Below, one piece after another: positions 25,886 to 64,000 of a stretch of 64,000 nt of DNA; positions within the stretch are counted from its first letter, which is position 1; the number at the start of each line of letters is the position of its first letter. Both the position numbers and the translations under genes were made by a program. The stretch is from positions 24,469-88,468 of IMG/VR virus record IMGVR_UViG_3300042261_002391. One strand, 5' to 3'. This DNA is from a virus. A model generated the notes under the pieces. That model searched no databases, had not been told where the DNA came from, and saw only the letters and a program-made list of their open reading frames with translations.

Positions 25886-25972
25886 AACTTTTAGAGTTTA
25901 ATTATAAATACTATTGAATTGCAAATGTAATGAATAATTTTTAATATACAAGCAATTTCAAATAAATTTTTG

Positions 25973-26046
25973 AGATTCTAGTGGGATTCGAACCCACGAT
26001 TTTCAAGTTTTAGAGACCTGTGCAATAACCACTCTGCCATAGAACC
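25973..26046 (-). tRNA. amber suppressor tRNA (CTA anticodon)
   Basis: GGTTCTA/TAGAATC acceptor, CAGGT-CTCTAAA-ACTTG anticodon arm, U73. Confidence 0.92.
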
Positions 26047-35960: not shown

Positions 35961-35991
35961 AAAAAACCCGAAACTTTTGATTTCGGGTTTT
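35961..35991 (-). terminator. attenuator terminator of tRNA operon 1
   Basis: AAACCCGAAA-TCAAAAG-TTTCGGGTTT + U tract, between leader ORF and first tRNA; boxA-like GTTCATTGACAT follows at 35943-35954. Confidence 0.9.
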
Positions 35992-36010
35992 ACTTTATGC
36001 TTAATATTCT

Positions 36011-36145
36011 TTACGAACCTATCGCATCCTCTACACCCGAATCAATTACAATATTTCTGCCTGTAATGTTAGAACAGAATATACCATTTCCATTGCGACT
36101 TGATGTCCCAAAATTTGAACTTGATATGGTTGTAAAAGTATTCAT
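36011..36145 (-). CDS. attenuator leader peptide of tRNA operon 1: MNTFTTISSSNFGTSSRNGNGIFCSNITGRNIVIDSGVEDAIGS
   Basis: Translated by hand; residues 2-32 use only N,T,F,I,S,G,R,C. Confidence 0.88.
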   Translation of the reverse strand: MNTFTTISSSNFGTSSRNGNGIFCSNITGRNIVIDSGVEDAIGS

Positions 36146-36173
36146 CGTTTTTATTTTTAATTGTTAATATTAA

Positions 36174-36233
36174 TTCGTTTTCATCTAAATACGTTGCAAA
36201 GGTAAAAAAGGTTACACAATTTGCAAACATTTT
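36174..36233 (-). promoter_or_regulatory. composite promoter (housekeeping TTTG-N19-TACCTTTG + ECF TGTAACC-N16-CGTAT + late-like GTATTTA)
   Basis: Near-identical copy at 60951-61010. Confidence 0.8.
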
Positions 36234-49227: not shown

Positions 49228-49255
49228 AAAAAACCCGAATCTTTCGAATCGGGTT
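49228..49255 (-). terminator. attenuator terminator of Lys/Tyr tRNA operon
   Basis: AACCCGATTC-GAAA-GATTCGGGTT + U tract. Confidence 0.9.
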
Positions 49256-49286
49256 CTTTTAATTTCTGGCTTTGCAAAATCATTGC

Positions 49287-49382
49287 TTATTTTTTGCGTC
49301 CTGCAGAACAAAACATTCCCGATTCCATAAGAGATTTCTTATAAGATTTATAACCGTAATATTTTTTTGCAGTAGCTTTCAT
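49287..49382 (-). CDS. attenuator leader peptide: MKATAKKYYGYKSYKKSLMESGMFCSAGRKK
   Basis: Translated by hand; 10 of residues 2-16 are K or Y. Confidence 0.88.
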   Translation of the reverse strand: MKATAKKYYGYKSYKKSLMESGMFCSAGRKK

Positions 49383-56908: not shown

Positions 56909-57607
56909 CTAACAAAATTTTATCCATTTTCGTATGGTATTGTCACTCACGCCATATTTCTTTCCAGTTGCAGCATATCCAATCTCATTAACACTATTCA
57001 ATAAAACATCTAGGTCTGGTCTGTCTACTTTACGTAAGCTCTTATGGTGACATTTTTGACACATAACGCTATTATTACTTATTGTTGCACCACACGAACA
57101 AAGCTTGTTTTTTTGTTTAGGTTTTTTTTCTCTAAATTTTAACAGCTTATTGTTTTTTCCTGCAAATGTATCTGATTGAGAATGACAGTTGGGACATAAA
57201 AATTCTAAATTTTCAATTCTGTTGTCATTATTAATACCATTTTTGTGTTCTAATTGTAATGATAATTTTTTACCTTCCCAACATCCAGTATTTCCGCATT
57301 TACATTTATACTCCAACAACCCTTTATTAATTAAACGTTTTTTTAGAGTAGCTCTATTCGTATAGGTTGAATTTTCAACGAGAATATCTTCTATTGGAAT
57401 TATTTCTTTAATTGATGTATGGTCACCATAATAATGATATTTAGGTATTACAATTCCTCTTTTAATTAGTTGTGATTTAATTGAGGCATATCCACCACTA
57501 CCGTTGCTACTATACCCAAAATTAATTAATACTTCCCTTAGTGACTTACTTTTTGCCAATACAGCAATAATCTCAGCATTACTATATTTTTCAATCTTAC
57601 TATTCAT
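56909..57607 (-). mobile_element. HNH homing endonuclease with C-terminal HTH
   Basis: LQLEHKNG...NLEFLCPNCH; GKKYGVSDNTIRKW; follows tRNA-Trp. Confidence 0.9.
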
Positions 57608-57673
57608 AACAATATTTTTTATATAAATAGTATTTCGAACAGCAAAAGTATTATTACATCAAAACTAATTTTG

Positions 57674-57745
57674 CACGCTTGGAAGTAATCGAAACCTCAT
57701 CTTCGGGGTTGGAAGCCGACATCTTAGCCATTAGACGACAAGCGT
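57674..57745 (-). tRNA. tRNA-Trp(CCA)
   Basis: Loop TTCCAAC, G73. Confidence 0.88.
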
Positions 57746-57766
57746 ATATTTATTTTTTCCCACTAA

Positions 57767-58279
57767 TTAAAATATTGATGCCCCTATTGTATATACAATT
57801 GCACTAAATGCAACTAATTCAATCCACCATGTTTTATTCTTTTTTAGTAATAACCCAATCAAAATCATTAAAGACGCTGATATCGCATTAACATGCCACA
57901 TATTATAACCAAATAGAATTGCTAATTGACTAAATCCAACACCTGCGATAGCTGCTGCAGCGTGTATTTTATATATCCAACTATCATTTATTTGAGCTGC
58001 TGCACCAACAAAACAAATACCAGCACCAGCAAAAAATATTAATGGTGTCACATCTATCCCGGCAATTATTGCTGGTATCGCAAAACCCCAACAAAATAAT
58101 GTAAATAGAAAGTTATATTGTTTAGGTAATGCATAGTAACTAGCACTGATTGAACTTTGTACACCGTATTTAATCCAAATAAACGATACATATGATACGA
58201 ACACAAGTACCATTATAATAAACGAAACTAATTGAAATCCCATATAATCATTTTTTTTCATAAATACGAAGAATATCAA
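57767..58279 (-). CDS. multi-pass membrane protein (SISASYY motif)
   Basis: Several TM segments; start likely at MGFQL. Confidence 0.75.
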   Translation of the reverse strand: MIFFVFMKKNDYMGFQLVSFIIMVLVFVSYVSFIWIKYGVQSSISASYYALPKQYNFLFTLFCWGFAIPAIIAGIDVTPLIFFAGAGICFVGAAAQINDSWIYKIHAAAAIAGVGFSQLAILFGYNMWHVNAISASLMILIGLLLKKNKTWWIELVAFSAIVYTIGASIF

Positions 58280-58282
58280 ATT

Positions 58283-58376
58283 AAAGTCGATAAACTACAT
58301 TCGGTTCAAGGCACTCTATAGTCCCGACTAATTTACCATAGATGCAGTAGTTCTTAACTCGTCTAACATCGACTTT
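58283..58376 (-). ncRNA. unidentified rod-like structured RNA in tRNA operon 2
   Basis: Nested stems AAAGTCGAT/ATCGACTTT, AACTAC/GTAGTT, TCTATGGT/ACTATAGA. Confidence 0.45.
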
Positions 58377-58377
58377 G

Positions 58378-58450
58378 TGGAGCTATCGGAGTACGATTCC
58401 GAAACATGACATTGCAAGTGTCATATGATAGCCAGTTTCACCATAACCCC
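58378..58450 (-). tRNA. tRNA-Ala(TGC), atypical T-loop ATCGTAC
   Basis: G3:U70, loop CTTGCAA. Confidence 0.88.
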
Positions 58451-58461
58451 AAATTTAATCG

Positions 58462-58532
58462 TTGCGATAACGGGAATCGAACCCGTATTGTCTCCTTATG
58501 AGAGAGGTATCCTACCGTTAGAAGATATCGCA
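58462..58532 (-). tRNA. tRNA-Met(CAT) (or lysidine Ile2)
   Basis: Loop CTCATAA. Confidence 0.85.
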
Positions 58533-58540
58533 ATATTGTG

Positions 58541-58614
58541 TGGAGTCGAAGGGACTCGAACCCTCAACATCCTGCGTGCAAGGCAGGTGCTCTAGCCAAT
58601 TGAGCTACGACCCC
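58541..58614 (-). tRNA. tRNA-Ala(TGC)
   Basis: Canonical, G3:U70. Confidence 0.95.
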
Positions 58615-58625
58615 AAGTTAATTTG

Positions 58626-58698
58626 TACACCCGGTCGGATTCGAACCGACACTTTATACGTTCTAAGCGTATTGACTCTACCGTTGGTCTACGAGTGC
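58626..58698 (-). tRNA. tRNA-Leu(TAG), short variable loop
   Basis: ATACG-CTTAGAA-CGTAT. Confidence 0.9.
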
Positions 58699-58704
58699 AT
58701 TTTG

Positions 58705-58777
58705 TAGCTACGGTCGGATTCGAACCGACACTTAACTGTGTTTGAAACAGACGACTCTGCCGTTGGTCTACGTAGCC
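58705..58777 (-). tRNA. tRNA-Leu(CAA), short variable loop
   Basis: Loop TTCAAAC. Confidence 0.88.
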
Positions 58778-58789
58778 ATTTAATTTTTG

Positions 58790-58862
58790 TAGCTGCAATC
58801 GGATTCGAACCGATACTTTATACGTTCTTAGCGTATTGACTCTGCCGTTGGTCTACGCAGCC
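58790..58862 (-). tRNA. tRNA-Leu(AAG), short variable loop
   Basis: ATACG-CTAAGAA-CGTAT. Confidence 0.88.
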
Positions 58863-58871
58863 AAATAGTTG

Positions 58872-58959
58872 TAGCTCAGATGGGACTCGAACCCACACGC
58901 CCCTCACGGAGCAGCAGATTTTAAGTCTGCTATGTACTACCAAATTTCATCACTGAGCC
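58872..58959 (-). tRNA. tRNA-Leu(TAA)
   Basis: Class II cloverleaf. Confidence 0.95.
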
Positions 58960-58964
58960 ATTCC

Positions 58965-59216
58965 TTAATTAATCTTAACAAGAGTATTGGAATTAAGTGC
59001 TTTCCTAATATATCTCATCAATGTTATTCCACGATATTCAGCAAAAAATGTTGATGTTCCAACATCTGCTTTATCGTTCATATCAACTTCAAATTGATAA
59101 ATATCTTCACCCACATACAAATTGTAATACAATACACCTGCAATAGCATGACTGAATTTTGCTGTTGTATCTTTTACTGCTTCTATAATTGTAATCATAA
59201 TTTCGAATTTTAGCAT
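58965..59216 (-). CDS. hypothetical phage protein
   Basis: Likely start MITIIE; ITLMRYIRKAL motif. Confidence 0.65.
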   Translation of the reverse strand: MLKFEIMITIIEAVKDTTAKFSHAIAGVLYYNLYVGEDIYQFEVDMNDKADVGTSTFFAEYRGITLMRYIRKALNSNTLVKIN

Positions 59217-59300
59217 GGGCGGGAGGATTCGAACCTAATGCTGCAGACAATCCATATTTCCCCTCGGGCGGGGAACGTCTTACCGTTAAACGACACCCAT
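59214..59300 (-). pseudogene. degenerate tRNA (loop CGCCCGA, long insert, broken T stem)
   Basis: Acceptor and D arm intact. Confidence 0.65.
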
Positions 59301-59365
59301 ATTTTTAATTTATCGGTAATATAACCTATAAACGTTATTTATCGGTAATATAACCTATAAATTTG

Positions 59366-59439
59366 TAGTCGTAGAGGGAATCGAACCCCCGATATTTTGC
59401 TTGTAAAGCAAACGCTCTAAACCACTAAGCCATACGACT
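59366..59439 (-). tRNA. tRNA-Val(TAC)
   Basis: Loop TTTACAA. Confidence 0.93.
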
Positions 59440-59446
59440 ATTTATG

Positions 59447-59520
59447 TGCTTCCAGTTGGATTCGAACCAACGACATTCACTTTGTAGGAGTGACATTCTT
59501 AACCACTGAAATATGGAAGC
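59447..59520 (-). tRNA. tRNA-Val(TAC), C33 variant
   Basis: TCACT-CCTACAA-AGTGA. Confidence 0.87.
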
Positions 59521-59619
59521 ATTTTTGTATGAAAATTCCGTCAATAACTCTCATTTTCGACGTTAGTGTTGGTTATTTCCGACAAAACAATATCTTTTGT
59601 TGATAATAAGCAACATCAG

Positions 59620-59709
59620 TACAGCGTAGGGGATTCGAACCCCTGATACCTCTATTAGAAGTATATCAGATTGAAAGTCTGACAACATAAGCCACTCGTT
59701 CAACGCTGC
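59620..59709 (-). tRNA. tRNA-Glu(TTC) with long variable arm
   Basis: TCAGA-CTTTCAA-TCTGA; extra arm ATACTTCT-AAT-AGAGGTAT. Confidence 0.85.
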
Positions 59710-59741
59710 ATCTTTCAGATTATATCGATTATAATCCATTG

Positions 59742-59813
59742 TACTCGGTACGGTACTCGAAACCGTATGGCAAGGTTGAAAACCTTGAATCCTAACCGTT
59801 AGATGAACCGAGC
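59742..59813 (-). tRNA. tRNA-Glu(TTC)
   Basis: CAAGG-TTTTCAA-CCTTG. Confidence 0.9.
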
Positions 59814-59838
59814 ATTTCTTTTGCTTATCATTTAAGCA

Positions 59839-60504
59839 TTAATATTTTTCATAATACTTTATCCACTTTCTTATGGCATTATCACTTACACCATATTTTC
59901 TACCTGTACCTAAATATCCTAGTTCTTTGATTTCATCAACTAATTGTTTATATTCAGGACGTTTAACTTTACGTTGATTGATTGATTTGTCCTTATTTAG
60001 AGTGCTTTTATTGACAAGATTTTTTATTTTCTTAATCCTTTCAACATTTTTTCCTCCATGTGTTGGGAGTGTTGCATTACAATTAGGACAAACAATTCTC
60101 AAATTTTCAATTCTATTATCATCATGCATTCCATTAATATGGTCAAGAATTAAACTCATATGCTTTCCATGCCAATTTTCATCCTGTCCACACAATTCAC
60201 ATTTACGTTCTTTTAATCCTTCTTTATATAGACGATTTTTTAAATTACACGTACTATGTGTTGAATTAAGAACTAATATATCTTCAATCGGTATTTTCAG
60301 CATAAAATTATATTTGTTGTCGTTAAAATTTGTCTGATTGATACGAATAAAATGATTCGTATCTAAATTAAATAACTTAATATATTTTTTTACTGTATTT
60401 CGATTTCCACATAAATTGTTACCATATAATTTTCTTGACACTTCTGATAACGATACTGATTCTTTTACGATTTTTTCAAATTCTAATTTATTCATAACTG
60501 TCAT
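59839..60504 (-). mobile_element. HNH homing endonuclease with C-terminal HTH (paralogue of 56909-57607)
   Basis: LDHING...NLRIVCPNCN; GRKYGVSDNAIRKW; follows tRNA-Asp. Confidence 0.9.
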
Positions 60505-60565
60505 TTATTATAAATACGAATCAGTTCGAAAAAACAGCGAAAAACCTCAATAAAATCAACATTGC

Positions 60566-60635
60566 CGAACGTGTGGGATTCGAACCCCTACTTCTGAGAG
60601 ACAGTCAGAGATGTTAGCCATTACACTACACGCCC
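60566..60635 (-). tRNA. tRNA-Asp(GTC), U37
   Basis: TCTGA-CTGTCTC-TCAGA. Confidence 0.83.
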
Positions 60636-60646
60636 GTTATTTTTTG

Positions 60647-60719
60647 CGGTACTGATGGGACTCGAACCCACGACCTGAGCATAGACAGTGCCCCATTCTC
60701 ACCACTGAACTACAGTACC
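60647..60719 (-). tRNA. tRNA-Asp(GTC), U37
   Basis: GGGCA-CTGTCTA-TGCTC, G73. Confidence 0.9.
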
Positions 60720-60758
60720 GTATTTTTCAACCCACAATTTCAATGAACTACATAAAAC

Positions 60759-60790
60759 AAAAAAACCCGGCTTAATCTTAAGTCGGGTTC
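60759..60790 (-). terminator. attenuator terminator of tRNA operon 2
   Basis: AACCCGACTTAA-GA-TTAAGCCGGGTT + U tract; boxA-like GTTCATTGAAA at 60738-60748. Confidence 0.9.
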
Positions 60791-60817
60791 TTTAAACAAT
60801 AACAATAGAAAGGAGGT

Positions 60818-60925
60818 TTATTGTTTCAAATTTTTGAACCCGACTTTGCATAACATATCCTCTGCATCTGCCCATAAGAGGTCAACTGCCACAACCACTG
60901 CTAATATGTTTAGTAAAGTCTTCAT
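60818..60925 (-). CDS. attenuator leader peptide: MKTLLNILAVVVAVDLLWADAEDMLCKVGFKNLKQ
   Basis: Translated by hand; residues 8-25 use only L,A,V,D,W,E,M. Confidence 0.88.
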   Translation of the reverse strand: MKTLLNILAVVVAVDLLWADAEDMLCKVGFKNLKQ

Positions 60926-60950
60926 TTTGTTATTTTTTAAATTTTTAACT

Positions 60951-61010
60951 ATTCGTTTCATCTAAATACGTTGCAAAGGTATAAAAGGTTACACAATTTG
61001 CAAACATTTT
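60951..61010 (-). promoter_or_regulatory. composite promoter, near-identical to 36174-36233
   Basis: TTTGCAAATTGTGTAACCTTTTATACCTTTGCAACGTATTTAGATGAAACGAAT. Confidence 0.8.
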
Positions 61011-61078
61011 TGCGAGAAAAATTGATTTTTTTTAAAAATTTTATTTAATTGTTTGAATATCAGTAAATTAAAAATACG

Positions 61079-61495
61079 CTAAATATTAAATATTTTTGGC
61101 AGACCTAATGATTTATGGTATGAATTGAATATTGATTTAATATTTAATGTTCCAGCAGGATTCATTGAATGAACCAATATTGTTTCAGGAAGTGCTAGTT
61201 TATTTTCGGCACAGTAATCAATCAACCATTTGGCACAATCATATCCGGTTTTTTCAACGAAGCTATCGTAAAGTTCGTTATATGTTTCCGAACCATGTAA
61301 ATCCGGGTCATAGTGTTCATCAGCTAAATCATGGTCAAATGAAACCATTGTAGGCAATCCGTTTTCTTCAATAGCTTTTATGAATTCATTATAACTACGG
61401 ACAACTTTCCAGCCAAGCAAATATAATTGATTATAGGTATAGTCGAAACTATCTTGAGGTTGACGATAATCGTCGAGATATAGATTATAAGTCAT
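61079..61495 (-). CDS. cyclic-phosphate processing receiver-domain protein (RNA repair associated)
   Basis: LYLDDYR, SFDHDL, TGYDCAKWL, VHSMNPAG. Confidence 0.85.
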   Translation of the reverse strand: MTYNLYLDDYRQPQDSFDYTYNQLYLLGWKVVRSYNEFIKAIEENGLPTMVSFDHDLADEHYDPDLHGSETYNELYDSFVEKTGYDCAKWLIDYCAENKLALPETILVHSMNPAGTLNIKSIFNSYHKSLGLPKIFNI

Positions 61496-61710: not shown

Positions 61711-61785
61711 TGGTTGTCCAGCGTGGACTCGAACCACGACTCCGACAGTCAAAGTGTCGTATGCTAACCATTACATAACAGGACA
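61711..61785 (-). tRNA. tRNA-Gln(TTG), CCA encoded
   Basis: CGACA-CTTTGAC-TGTCG, U1:A72. Confidence 0.93.
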
Positions 61786-61788
61786 ATT

Positions 61789-62553
61789 TTATGAAAATGC
61801 TTCTTCTAAGCACATTATTAATTTTTGCATGTTTGCTCGATAAAAGCCAGCACTATTAGTACAACCACATTCGACTATTTTATACTGACCATTAACCAAA
61901 CACACATCCATTACAAACGTTTCATTTATTTCAAACAACTTTATCATTTCTCTTACGAAAGAATATGCTGATTCATCAACAAATTCATCTAAACAATACC
62001 TACCGCCTAAACTATACTGACTTGCGGTAGCAATTTCACCTTTTACAATCCAAAATCGAATTTCTTTTTGTATTTTCTTTACACTTGAAATCTGTATTTT
62101 AGTGTCAAGGTTTAATATTGTTGAATGACCGTTTGTTGATTGTTCGTTTTTAAATATATTCCATTGCTCCATATCGAAAACACGCCCGGTAAATACTTTT
62201 GTATCTTCAGTAGGTCTAGCGAAAAAAATATCTTCACGAAAAAAATTATCACCAAATTTAACGATTTCCGAATCATAATTCAACAAATTGTCTTTATAAT
62301 ACTTACTATATACTTCGTAATCATGATTTTCGCATAAAGTTGAACCCGGATACCAACCATATTGTTTGGAGATTCTCGACATTTTTACAGCACCAAAAGG
62401 AAACACATCATTTCTTTTGGTTTTAAATTTAAATGTTTCAATGAATGGTCTTACATTAACAATTTCATATGGTAAATTTAAACGATTCAATGCTAGAATC
62501 AAACTGTTATAGTTTTCTTCACGGAATACATTTTCTTGAACGATATAATACAT
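61789..62553 (-). CDS. ATP-grasp domain protein (DUF4343/R2K-like)
   Basis: FARP...KVFTG, EIRFWIV.G, VMDV, KIVE...NSAGFY. Confidence 0.85.
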   Translation of the reverse strand: MYYIVQENVFREENYNSLILALNRLNLPYEIVNVRPFIETFKFKTKRNDVFPFGAVKMSRISKQYGWYPGSTLCENHDYEVYSKYYKDNLLNYDSEIVKFGDNFFREDIFFARPTEDTKVFTGRVFDMEQWNIFKNEQSTNGHSTILNLDTKIQISSVKKIQKEIRFWIVKGEIATASQYSLGGRYCLDEFVDESAYSFVREMIKLFEINETFVMDVCLVNGQYKIVECGCTNSAGFYRANMQKLIMCLEEAFS

Positions 62554-62554
62554 A

Positions 62555-62857
62555 TCAAATATTTTCGATTATCCAATCAGTTAAATTAGTTTCAGCAGCC
62601 ACTTGATTATATGACCATTTACAATCTTCCCAATTTAACATATCTTTAGTCTGTTTATAGATTAGACTATCTTTTTCACAATAAATTCTAAATGTTTTAT
62701 ATCTCTCATCATCAGGATACTTTTTAGCATCTTTATATGCTGAAGATAATCCATGTGTGGACGTTTGGTAAACTTTACCTCGTTTACTTAAATTACTGCC
62801 ACGATGTTTATGTGGCTGGTAATATAACCCGGTTGGTACATGTTTTAATTTATACAT
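62555..62857 (-). CDS. hypothetical protein
   Basis: MYKLKHVPTGLYY; housekeeping-type promoter TATCTTTG at ~62873-62880. Confidence 0.65.
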   Translation of the reverse strand: MYKLKHVPTGLYYQPHKHRGSNLSKRGKVYQTSTHGLSSAYKDAKKYPDDERYKTFRIYCEKDSLIYKQTKDMLNWEDCKWSYNQVAAETNLTDWIIENI

Positions 62858-62912
62858 CGCTCTTTTTTCTTGCAAAGATAAATAATAATTTCAATCACAC
62901 AAGTATTTTTTG

Positions 62913-62995
62913 TAGTCCCCGCAGGATTCGAACCTGCAAACCCGTTAGAGTGTCGGCTTCAAAGACCGATGCATTAACCATTCTGCCAGAGGACT
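62913..62995 (-). tRNA. tRNA-Gln(TTG) with long variable arm
   Basis: TCGGT-CTTTGAA-GCCGA; extra arm ACTC-TAAC-GGGT. Confidence 0.83.
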
Positions 62996-63006
62996 ATAAT
63001 AAAAAG

Positions 63007-63053
63007 CTGTCTTGACAGGATTCGAACCTGTACTCTCTTGGTTCAGAGCCAAT
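63007..63053 (-). pseudogene. 3' part of tRNA-Gln(CTG), 5' acceptor and D arm missing
   Basis: TTGG-CTCTGAA-CCAA, T arm and 3' acceptor only. Confidence 0.75.
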
Positions 63054-63056
63054 AAT

Positions 63057-63133
63057 TGGTGTGTCTAGGAAGATTCGAACTTCTCACCAACAGAATCACA
63101 AGCTGTCGTGCTAACCGTTACACTATAGACACC
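63057..63133 (-). tRNA. tRNA-His(GTG), G-1 present, A73, CCA encoded
   Basis: GTGTCTA/TAGACAC, loop TTGTGAT. Confidence 0.88.
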
Positions 63134-63136
63134 ATA

Positions 63137-64000
63137 TCACGAGTTTTCATAAAACTCTAAAAATTTTTTAATTTCATTTTCAATATAAATTTTTCCTGAT
63201 TCACTATTAATACTTTTCCATTTAATTCTATAAACATTAAAACCGTTCTCTTTTAATATTTTATCTCTTTCAATATCATGTTCTTTTCTGTACTTATGTT
63301 GACTACCATCAATTTCCAAATCAATATTTTTATTTTTTAAATAGAAATCTAAAAAATAATTACATGAACTTCGTAATCCTAAATTATTTTTATTTATCGG
63401 AAAATTATGACTAAAATCAATATTATTATTTTTTAATACATTAATAAAAAATTGTTCAGGATAGCTTATAATATTTCTTGTTTGCCAACCTTTATGTGAG
63501 CCATTAAATATCGCATTTTCCATATATTTTTTCTGATTGTCGCTTCTTAATTTATTTCTACAAGTATCAGAACAACATTTATTTTTCAAATAAGAACCTT
63601 TATGACTAACATTAACAATAAATTCATTGTTACATATTATGCATATTCTAGTTAATTCAGGTAATTTAATTTCATTTTTCGTTCTTTTAACCTTAACGCT
63701 ATTTTTTAGTCTATTACTTATTTTATTTTTTGTTTCTGTTGATAATATTCTATTTTTATTATTAAAACTTGCAGCACAACTACTATTACAAAATTTATTA
63801 TATTTACTTATTATAGGTTTTCCGCAAAATAAACAATATTTGATTTTCTTCTCAAAATGACTTACATCGATATTATATTTTTTTATTAAAATATCTAATT
63901 TATCATACGTTGTTTTATTTGAGTAACCATAATATTTAAGTAACACATCATTTTTAGAATTAGCATTTCTTATAATTTCAAATAAATTTTTTTCTATCAT
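63137..64000 (-). mobile_element. DUF559/Vsr-like homing endonuclease
   Basis: SYPEQFF...YFLDF...LEIDGSQH...DIERD...YRIKW. Confidence 0.85.

Follow-up and report, generated by a model that had tools for sequence, protein, structure and literature searches.

Organization of the operon 2 leader region

The window analyzed here, a stretch of 64,000 nt, forms the right-hand part of an 88-kb contig from a large uncultured freshwater (lake) phage with a GC content of 32% and 39 tRNA genes predicted by ARAGORN. In the whole 88-kb contig, a hairpin with a T-run directly ahead of a tRNA gene was found at only three sites. One of these belongs to operon 2, which is located on the minus strand and consists of a promoter, an A-rich 5′-UTR, an open reading frame (ORF) of 35 codons, a spacer of 27 nt, a hairpin followed by a T-run, and 14 tRNA genes, in this order (Table 1). 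The ORFs scattered through the tRNA block encode an HNH endonuclease (60504-59839), a protein of 83 aa, and a membrane protein of 170 aa. HNH/homing-endonuclease-like ORFs amid the putatively gated tRNA genes were noted at 56909-57607, 59839-60504, and 63137-64000. Several of the tRNA predictions are unusually long, e.g., Glu at 59619-59709 (91 nt) and Gln at 62912-62995 (84 nt), and may contain insertions.

Table 1 Coordinates of the leader units and associated features in the window
Feature	Position	Strand	Description
Operon 2 promoter, Bacteroidetes type	61004-60974	minus	TTTG (61004-61001), 19-nt spacer, TAccTTTG (60981-60974); from motif scan and sequence
Operon 2 leader ORF	60925-60818	minus	35 codons and TAA (60820-60818), ATG at 60925; peptide MKTLLNILAVVVAVDLLWADAEDMLCKVGFKNLKQ
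Putative sensing tract, codons 8-25	60851-60904	minus	Ala/Asp/Glu/Leu/Met/Val/Trp codons only; peptide LAVVVAVDLLWADAEDML
Putative antiterminator strand	60846-60836	minus	AAGTCGGGTTC; within codons 27-30, ends 15 nt ahead of the stop codon
Predicted intrinsic terminator	60790-60754	minus	5′ arm 60790-60779, loop 60778-60775, 3′ arm 60774-60763, T-run TTTTTTTGTTTT to 60754
Conserved box	60748-60731	minus	GTTCATTGAAATTGTGGG; between the operon 2 terminator and the first tRNA gene
Putatively gated tRNA block	60719-57673	minus	Asp x2, Glu x2, Val x2, Leu x4, Ala, CAT, Ala, Trp; ARAGORN
Operon 1 unit	35961-36227	minus	promoter 36227-36197; 44-codon leader 36145-36011; antiterminator TTCGGGT 36041-36035; terminator 35990-35961
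Operon 3 unit	49228-49382	minus	31-codon Lys/Tyr-rich leader 49382-49287; antiterminator GAATCGGG 49325-49318; terminator 49256-49228

The promoter motif is presumably the consensus of the Bacteroidetes sigma-A factor. Together with the 5′-UTR, it is nearly identical to its counterpart in operon 1 across about 60 nt, and the motif T[TC]TG-N17-21-TAnnTTTG was present upstream of 34 of 39 orthologous operon 2 leaders. A scan for sigma-70 promoters and terminators yielded nothing that exceeded shuffled sequences; the terminator of operon 2, which contains a mismatch, was overlooked by the scanner. The word TTTGCAAATTGTGTAACC, shared by the two promoter/5′-UTR regions, was also used for an exact-word scan of IMG/VR, but the single match was in a coding region without tRNA genes and was discarded as a chance match.

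An alternative in-frame ATG at 60961 would extend the leader peptide to 47 aa. However, this start is not conserved. It is missing in relatives, and in operon 1 an ORF beginning at that place would encounter a stop after 4 codons; therefore, 60925 is the likely start. A Pfam search with the operon 2 leader peptide returned no match. The hairpin downstream of the ORF, GAACCCGACTTA/agat/TAAGCCGGGTTT, contains one A.C mismatch and precedes a run of seven T; its predicted free energy is -13.2 kcal/mol (z = -5.1). This terminator is retained in all orthologues. The first tRNA gene, encoding tRNA-Asp, begins 34 nt after the T-run.

Correspondence between leader codons and downstream tRNAs

Residues 8-25 of the leader peptide comprise all seven of the amino acids A, D, E, L, M, V, and W and nothing else; for W, E, and M there is a single residue each. 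This alphabet is exactly the set of isotypes encoded downstream. All 18 codons of the tract can be read by the tRNAs of operon 2 itself, compared to only one or two of the ten codons of the tail. The four tRNAs for Leu have the anticodons taa, aag, caa, and tag (ARAGORN), and the Leu codons of the leader are TTA (L4, L8, L17, L25), CTA (L5), and CTC (L16), which correspond to the anticodons taa, tag, and aag, respectively. The codon TTG, read by caa, occurs in the leader only at L33, which is in the tail. The restricted alphabet with its single W, E, and M, the list of downstream tRNAs, and the three matches between Leu codons and anticodons had all been put forward in a sequence-only reading of this DNA, and all of them were recovered, the tRNA list with ARAGORN.

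The seven amino acids account for 34.5% of the residues in the long ORFs of the phage. The probability of an uninterrupted run of at least 18 of them in a peptide of 35 residues is about 8e-8, and no such run occurred in 2 million simulated peptides. In the three units of the window, the share of tract residues that are cognate to the tRNA set of the same unit was 100% in operons 1 and 2 and 67% in operon 3, versus 0-20% for the other two sets.

The residues K2, T3, N6, and I7 in the head of the peptide are not cognate to operon 2, and thus stalls at these positions would open the operon as well. Because there is only one codon each for W, E, and M, the sensitivity to the respective tRNAs is expected to be weak. 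A head of the form MK(T/N)(L/I/V)x(N/D)I is common to leaders of very different composition (60925-60905 and 36145-36125 in the window; loci L025-L230), which suggests either common descent or a requirement of initiation or early elongation.

Sister units in the contig

The other two units have the same kind of parts (Table 1). The leader of operon 1 contains exclusively N, T, F, I, S, G, R, and C at residues 2-32, and the block behind it encodes tRNAs for Cys, Ile, Ser, Phe, Gly, Asn, Thr, and Arg. The Lys/Tyr-rich leader of operon 3 precedes genes for tRNA-Lys, tRNA-Tyr, and a further tRNA-Lys. The amino acids are thus divided among the leaders, with N/T/F/I/S/G/R/C in operon 1, A/D/E/L/M/V/W in operon 2, and K/Y in operon 3. 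In Pfam, the operon 3 leader had no match, and the operon 1 leader had only a non-significant one (E = 0.12; 12.7 bits versus a cut-off of 27). A tRNA gene with the anticodon CTA, i.e., an amber reader that ARAGORN labels Pyl, was observed at the end of the operon 1 block (25972-26046), and early TAG codons in ORFs after this gene had been mentioned in the first reading.

One tRNA-His gene and two tRNA-Gln genes are located at 61711-63132, upstream of the operon 2 promoter. No leader is visible for them, as the contig breaks off at 64000 within an endonuclease-like ORF. According to the rule that emerged from the other units, a leader rich in His, Gln, and Pro is expected in relatives, and such leaders were indeed found. 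In loci identified via a neighbouring 138-aa gene, a Pro/His/Gln-rich leader, e.g., MKNFTHTQPQPQQHPQEVEWGKYV, precedes tRNA genes for Pro, His, and Gln; the gene order is the same, and a leader of the operon 2 type follows next. Hence, a fourth attenuator and a tRNA-Pro gene of this phage are probably located just off the contig.

Pairing and covariation of the putative antiterminator

The segment AAGTCGGGTTC inside the ORF (60846-60836) is the exact reverse complement of GAACCCGACTT (60790-60780) in the 5′ arm of the terminator. Thus, the 11 Watson-Crick pairs out of 11 that the sequence-only reading had described were verified. The duplex has a predicted free energy of -20.0 kcal/mol (RNAduplex). 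When the 176 nt upstream were shuffled 20000 times, the longest stretch perfectly complementary to the arm averaged 4.4 nt and never exceeded 10 nt. The antiterminators of the three units (TTCGGGT in operon 1, AAGTCGGGTTC in operon 2, and GAATCGGG in operon 3) differ from one another, and each fits the terminator arm of its own unit. Duplexes of cognate antiterminators and arms had a mean energy of -12.0 kcal/mol versus -7.5 kcal/mol for non-cognate combinations, and none of 100000 permutations was as good.

An alignment of 11 operon 2 orthologues showed that the core helix of 7 bp is paired in 76 of 77 cells, and that three orthologues carry a double change of one core pair, from G-C to A-U. 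The arm base of this pair covaries in two of the three also with the 3′ arm of the terminator, as is expected for a base that is shared between two alternative helices. The Pro/His/Gln leaders have differing arms, each with a fitting antiterminator (GAATGGGG/CCCCATTC versus TGCTTGGG/CCCAAGCA), and the paralogous and distant leaders have still other arm sequences, to which their antiterminators match accordingly. A lack of conservation of the pairing had been named at the outset as an observation that would contradict an attenuator, and the conserved core, the double changes, and the matched arms of the paralogues show that it did not occur.

Predicted structures and ribosome position

Two kinds of in silico folding were applied. 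For the first, the transcript was folded before the 3′ arm of the terminator is made, and a ribosome footprint from A-15 to A+12 was masked codon by codon. In this pre-terminator transcript, the pairing between the 5′ arm and the antiterminator had a probability of about 1, except where the footprint masked the antiterminator. The last A-site codon that permitted the pairing was M24/L25 in operon 2, K16 in operon 3, and I32 in operon 1, and in all three cases this is the end of the cognate tract. When 36 distinct leaders were pooled, the cognate fraction was 0.56 in the permissive window versus 0.31 in the tail (Fisher 3e-16).

For the second, equilibrium folds were calculated. With codons 8-25 of operon 2 in the A site, the probability of the terminator was 0.5-0.99, and the terminator was preferred at most ribosome positions. 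As equilibrium favours the terminator, the switch would have to be kinetic. The folding of the whole operon 2 leader was no better than that of shuffled sequences (z = -0.34). Equilibrium folding was set aside as an inadequate model for testing the switch; in the trp attenuator, the terminator is likewise the more stable structure.

A ribosome at the stop codon leaves the antiterminator uncovered, with gaps of 15-28 nt. Termination would therefore have to rest on timing and not on a steric block as in trp. A 1:2 anti-antiterminator or pause hairpin could not be clearly established in the folds of the leaders. In the full-length minimum free energy structure, GACUUU of codons 2-4 pairs with AAAGUC; the ribosome-free pre-terminator transcript is still dominated by the antiterminator, and the model predicts that an untranslated leader would read through.

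Leaders in other phages and orthologues in IMG/VR

The tRNA-rich regions of four published huge-phage genomes (LR756500, LR756501, LR756504, and LR745206), which were reached via weak DNA matches, were searched with a detector that required a hairpin with T5 within 150 nt before a tRNA gene and, upstream of the arm at a distance of 10-50 nt, the end of an ORF of 15-50 codons. As the detector allowed loops of at most 9 nt and demanded an uninterrupted T5, it missed or misdrew true units (L026, L030, and L033), which were recovered by eye, and the leader counts are therefore lower bounds. At least 17 further units were found in the four huge phages, and 20 leaders from five large phages, including the one analyzed here, were compared. 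The compositions of the leaders are very diverse. Examples are MKTKKQQYKQYQPQYKTVMGVYSLFGT, which precedes tRNA genes for Tyr, Tyr, Gln, and four Lys; a leader containing IAIVEIAVIGGAEEGV, followed by Glu, Ala, Ile, Val, and Gly; a leader containing SKSSSRSSSMS, followed by Arg and Ser; and MTTTQQIQQQQINQTD, followed by three genes for tRNA-Gln.

In a permutation test with the 20 leaders, the own tRNA set ranked first of 20 for 17-18 leaders. The summed enrichment z was 75.5, versus a mean of 0 (sd 7.2) for permuted sets, and none of 200000 permutations reached 75.5. All 20 amino acids were more common in leaders that precede their own tRNA.

Orthologues of the operon 2 leader were retrieved from IMG/VR with the tRNA-blind pattern TTATGGG..GTCGGGT..ACCCGAC, which represents only leader and arm. 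It occurred at 46 places, of which six were chance matches within long ORFs and 40 were leaders of the operon 2 type. All 40 precede tRNA genes for Asp, Glu, Val, Leu, Ala, and Trp, 37 of them within 200 nt. The sequence-only reading had stated that conservation of the peptide as a membrane protein regardless of tRNA content would speak against its proposal; this was tested, and the invariable presence of matching tRNAs shows that it is not the case. Among 32 distinct orthologous peptides, A, D, E, L, M, V, and W made up 91% of the sensing tract versus 34% of the tail, and the order of the residues was shuffled (e.g., VVLAVDLLWADAED, VALEAVLLWAADED, and LVLVALLWVDDAEE). A composition that is kept while the order is shuffled fits a codon sensor but does not fit a peptide that folds or resides in a membrane. 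All four tract substitutions of a near relative, which comes from another metagenome, are synonymous, amino acids of the tail are altered, and the arms are unchanged; the contigs of four DNA runs covered the leader only in patches and provided one diverged relative. Among the sequencing runs listed for 57600-61100, none was an RNA run. Taken together, the retained composition with free order and the synonymous changes indicate that the property under selection is the presence of codons and not the structure of the peptide.

A conserved box between terminator and first tRNA

A box with the consensus GTTC(A/T)TTGA(C/A)AT.TTGG (GTTCATTGA..) is located between the operon 2 terminator and the first tRNA gene. 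Only two copies exist in the window, the second (35954-35937) being located before the first tRNA gene of operon 1. The box is present in 24 of 32 spacers of the operon 2 type, and its start is 22-24 nt away from the first tRNA gene in 22 of these 24. It remains beside the tRNA gene in spite of an insertion of 220 nt. It is absent from operon 3 and from most of the distant units, in which the tRNA gene begins 5-20 nt past the T-run, so that read-through would be the sole route to those tRNAs. The box may serve as a signal for processing or as a further site of transcription initiation; its distance to the tRNA gene of 22-28 nt is too short for a sigma-70 or a Bacteroidetes promoter. In some relatives (L025 9400-9470, L029/L198, and L202), a strong hairpin (GGAGTGGGTT..AATCCACTCC) is located between the box and the first detected tRNA gene.

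Proposed mechanism and alternative explanations

The correspondence between leader and tRNAs, the ribosome geometry, the covariation, and the linkage in orthologues support the proposal of the sequence-only reading that the element may be an attenuator with a leader peptide that is matched to the tRNAs encoded downstream. Judged from these sequence features, operon 2 is very likely to be controlled by ribosome-mediated transcription attenuation at a leader peptide that gates a phage tRNA operon. The host RNA polymerase would start at the Bacteroidetes-type promoter, and a ribosome would translate the 35-codon leader behind it. Codons 8-25 would sample the codons served by the 14 downstream tRNAs. 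If any cognate charged tRNA were scarce, the ribosome would stall in the tract, and AAGTCGGGTTC would stay bare and could capture the emerging 5′ arm of the terminator; the hairpin would then form too late, and the polymerase would enter the tRNA genes. With fast decoding, the ribosome would be on codons 25-35 and mask the antiterminator while the terminator is made, and transcription would stop before the tRNA genes. Because the products of the operon would relieve the stall, a negative feedback would result, and each tRNA block would be made on demand. We infer translation of the ORF, the coupling of transcription and translation, the direction and the size of the response, and the control of read-through by leader translation in the cell from the arrangement of these elements. 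Possible triggers would be the decay of host tRNAs after shut-off, a mismatch in codon usage, or anticodon-nuclease defences, all of which are discussed as contexts of phage tRNAs (PMC10264068, PMC11555353, PMC11464382). The sensor cannot separate a shortage of tRNA from a shortage of amino acid.

Three other explanations were considered. The hydrophobic-looking stretch LAVVVAVDLLW could belong to a real small hydrophobic or membrane peptide with a terminator of its own, with the tRNAs being expressed separately and the matches being incidental. The peptide family is indeed kept in relatives, including the LLW core, and a separate start at the box past the terminator is conceivable. However, the LLW core was partly imposed by the search pattern, and the box is too near to the tRNA gene for a promoter and is lacking in most other units. 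Furthermore, the tract, with its five acidic residues, is not a transmembrane helix, the order of residues is not retained among the 32 orthologues although 91% of the tract is cognate, the peptide never occurs without tRNA genes among the 40 IMG/VR leaders, and a correspondence with the tRNAs exists also for K/Q/Y, H/F/K/W, S/R, Q, P/D, and I/G/A leaders. Hence, a membrane peptide is highly improbable. It is somewhat less remote, yet still quite improbable, that the terminator is conditional but run by a phage or host protein or by a transcription programme, as in the lambda N/Q type, and that the ORF is translated without being a sensor. Large phages frequently have their own transcription factors, the terminator is preferred in equilibrium folding, and the conserved box adjoins it. 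Control by a protein would, however, leave unexplained that each leader spells its own tRNA set, that the cognate tract ends at the boundary permitted by the ribosome, and that the terminator arm shows covariation with a stretch of the ORF.

The last alternative shares all parts with the proposed attenuator and differs in the signal, which would be amino-acid starvation of the host or general translation stress and not the supply of phage tRNAs. A stalled ribosome reports a shortage of charged tRNA of any cause, the common non-cognate head MK(T/N)xxNI would answer to other shortages, and an untranslated leader is predicted to read through. Yet, additional tRNA is no cure for amino-acid starvation, and therefore nothing would be gained from a separate sensor for each tRNA block. 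The distribution of all amino acids over blocks with matched leaders and the codon matches at the level of isoacceptors point to the tRNAs as the controlled variable, and starvation as the signal appears unlikely, though less so than the other two alternatives. Returning to attenuation by tRNA supply, it seems rather likely that large phages of Bacteroidota have a codon-resolved and self-correcting supply of tRNAs, in which the tRNA complement as a whole is divided into blocks, and each block stands behind its own ribosome-read test gene and is transcribed only during stalls on its codons. If this is true, tRNAs lost to host shut-off or to anticodon nucleases would be refilled automatically.

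Comparison with known attenuators and tRNA operons

Attenuators that respond to more than one amino acid are known from enterobacteria, i.e., the leaders of ilvGMEDA (Ile/Leu/Val) and thrL (Thr/Ile); further examples of leader-peptide attenuators are trpL, hisL, leuL, and pheL. The phage element resembles these leaders in its short ORF rich in regulatory codons, its intrinsic terminator, and a mutually exclusive antiterminator, the 5′ strand of which is located just past the regulatory codons, as well as in the representation of several amino acids in one leader and in the ribosome position as the putative signal. In contrast to the enterobacterial leaders, it would control tRNA genes and not biosynthetic enzymes, and its sensor would read the operon's own products. 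Further differences are that up to seven to nine amino acids are represented per phage leader, some of them by one codon, that the antiterminator is wholly within the ORF and is left uncovered by a ribosome at the stop codon, that a 1:2 pause hairpin could not be established, and that the element is phage-borne and located behind a Bacteroidetes-type promoter. An Rfam search at E <= 1 returned only two sub-threshold matches to unrelated sRNA models, and neither a Trp, His, Leu, or Thr leader family nor a T-box was among the matches.

Leader-peptide attenuation of a component of the translation apparatus is known for pheST of E. coli with its pheM leader. However, the target is an aminoacyl-tRNA synthetase and not tRNA genes, one amino acid is sensed, and the operon is chromosomal. 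The T-box has in common with the proposed phage attenuator that a leader with a conditional terminator and antiterminator responds to the state of specific tRNAs. It differs in that it binds uncharged tRNA directly, without translation, and that it controls genes for synthetases, biosynthesis, and transport; the phage element has a conserved ORF in place of a specifier loop. The trn operon of Anabaena sp. PCC 7120 comprises accessory tRNA genes that are not expressed by default but are switched on upon impairment of translation (PMC8421152). Among published inducible tRNA arrays it comes closest, but its control is exerted by a repressor, TrcR, which binds to direct repeats in the promoter (PMC8421152, PMC10272220), and the words 'leader', 'attenuat', and 'terminator' are absent from both papers.

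A literature search for control of tRNA genes or of phage tRNA arrays by leader peptides or attenuators retrieved no published account, and a targeted look at the huge-phage paper (PMC7162821) found none either. The structural features that define leader-peptide attenuators, apart from a clear pause hairpin, are present in the phage element, and tRNA genes would be a new target. If the proposed mechanism is true, it would be the first case in which leader-peptide attenuation acts on tRNA genes and senses the operon's own products. Attenuation would thereby be extended to RNA genes, to feedback on the sensed molecule, to phages, and to transcription of the Bacteroidota type.

The purpose of tRNA genes in phages has been a matter of debate for decades; codon compensation, the replacement of degraded host tRNAs, and the escape from anticodon nucleases are among the proposals. 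To our knowledge, almost nothing is known about the regulation of phage tRNA arrays. If the mechanism operates as proposed, the phage would gauge the speed of decoding codon by codon and supply tRNAs on demand, and hypotheses of supply and demand would become directly testable with simple reporters. A practical rule for annotation follows as well: the tRNAs encoded in a block can be predicted from the composition of the small ORF in front of it, as exemplified by the Pro/His/Gln leader, which was predicted correctly.

Variant arrangements

In another phage clade (L163, L164, L167, L169, L171, L175, L177, L182, and L184), a single leader of 41-45 codons, MKQLHNISNQYSRRHGQEPMG.ACILDSEFVDKRCLYKWVS and variants thereof, was observed about 2-4 kb into the loci. 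The array behind it is a single mixed one with up to about 15 tRNA isotypes, and almost every amino acid seems to be represented once or twice in the leader. Units in tandem were observed in two huge phages, in LR756504 near 401 kb (Asp, then Tyr/Gln/Lys) and in LR745206 near 407 kb (Pro/Asp, then Gln). In these tandem units, codons belonging to the second block are found in the first leader too, as though the control were meant to be nested.
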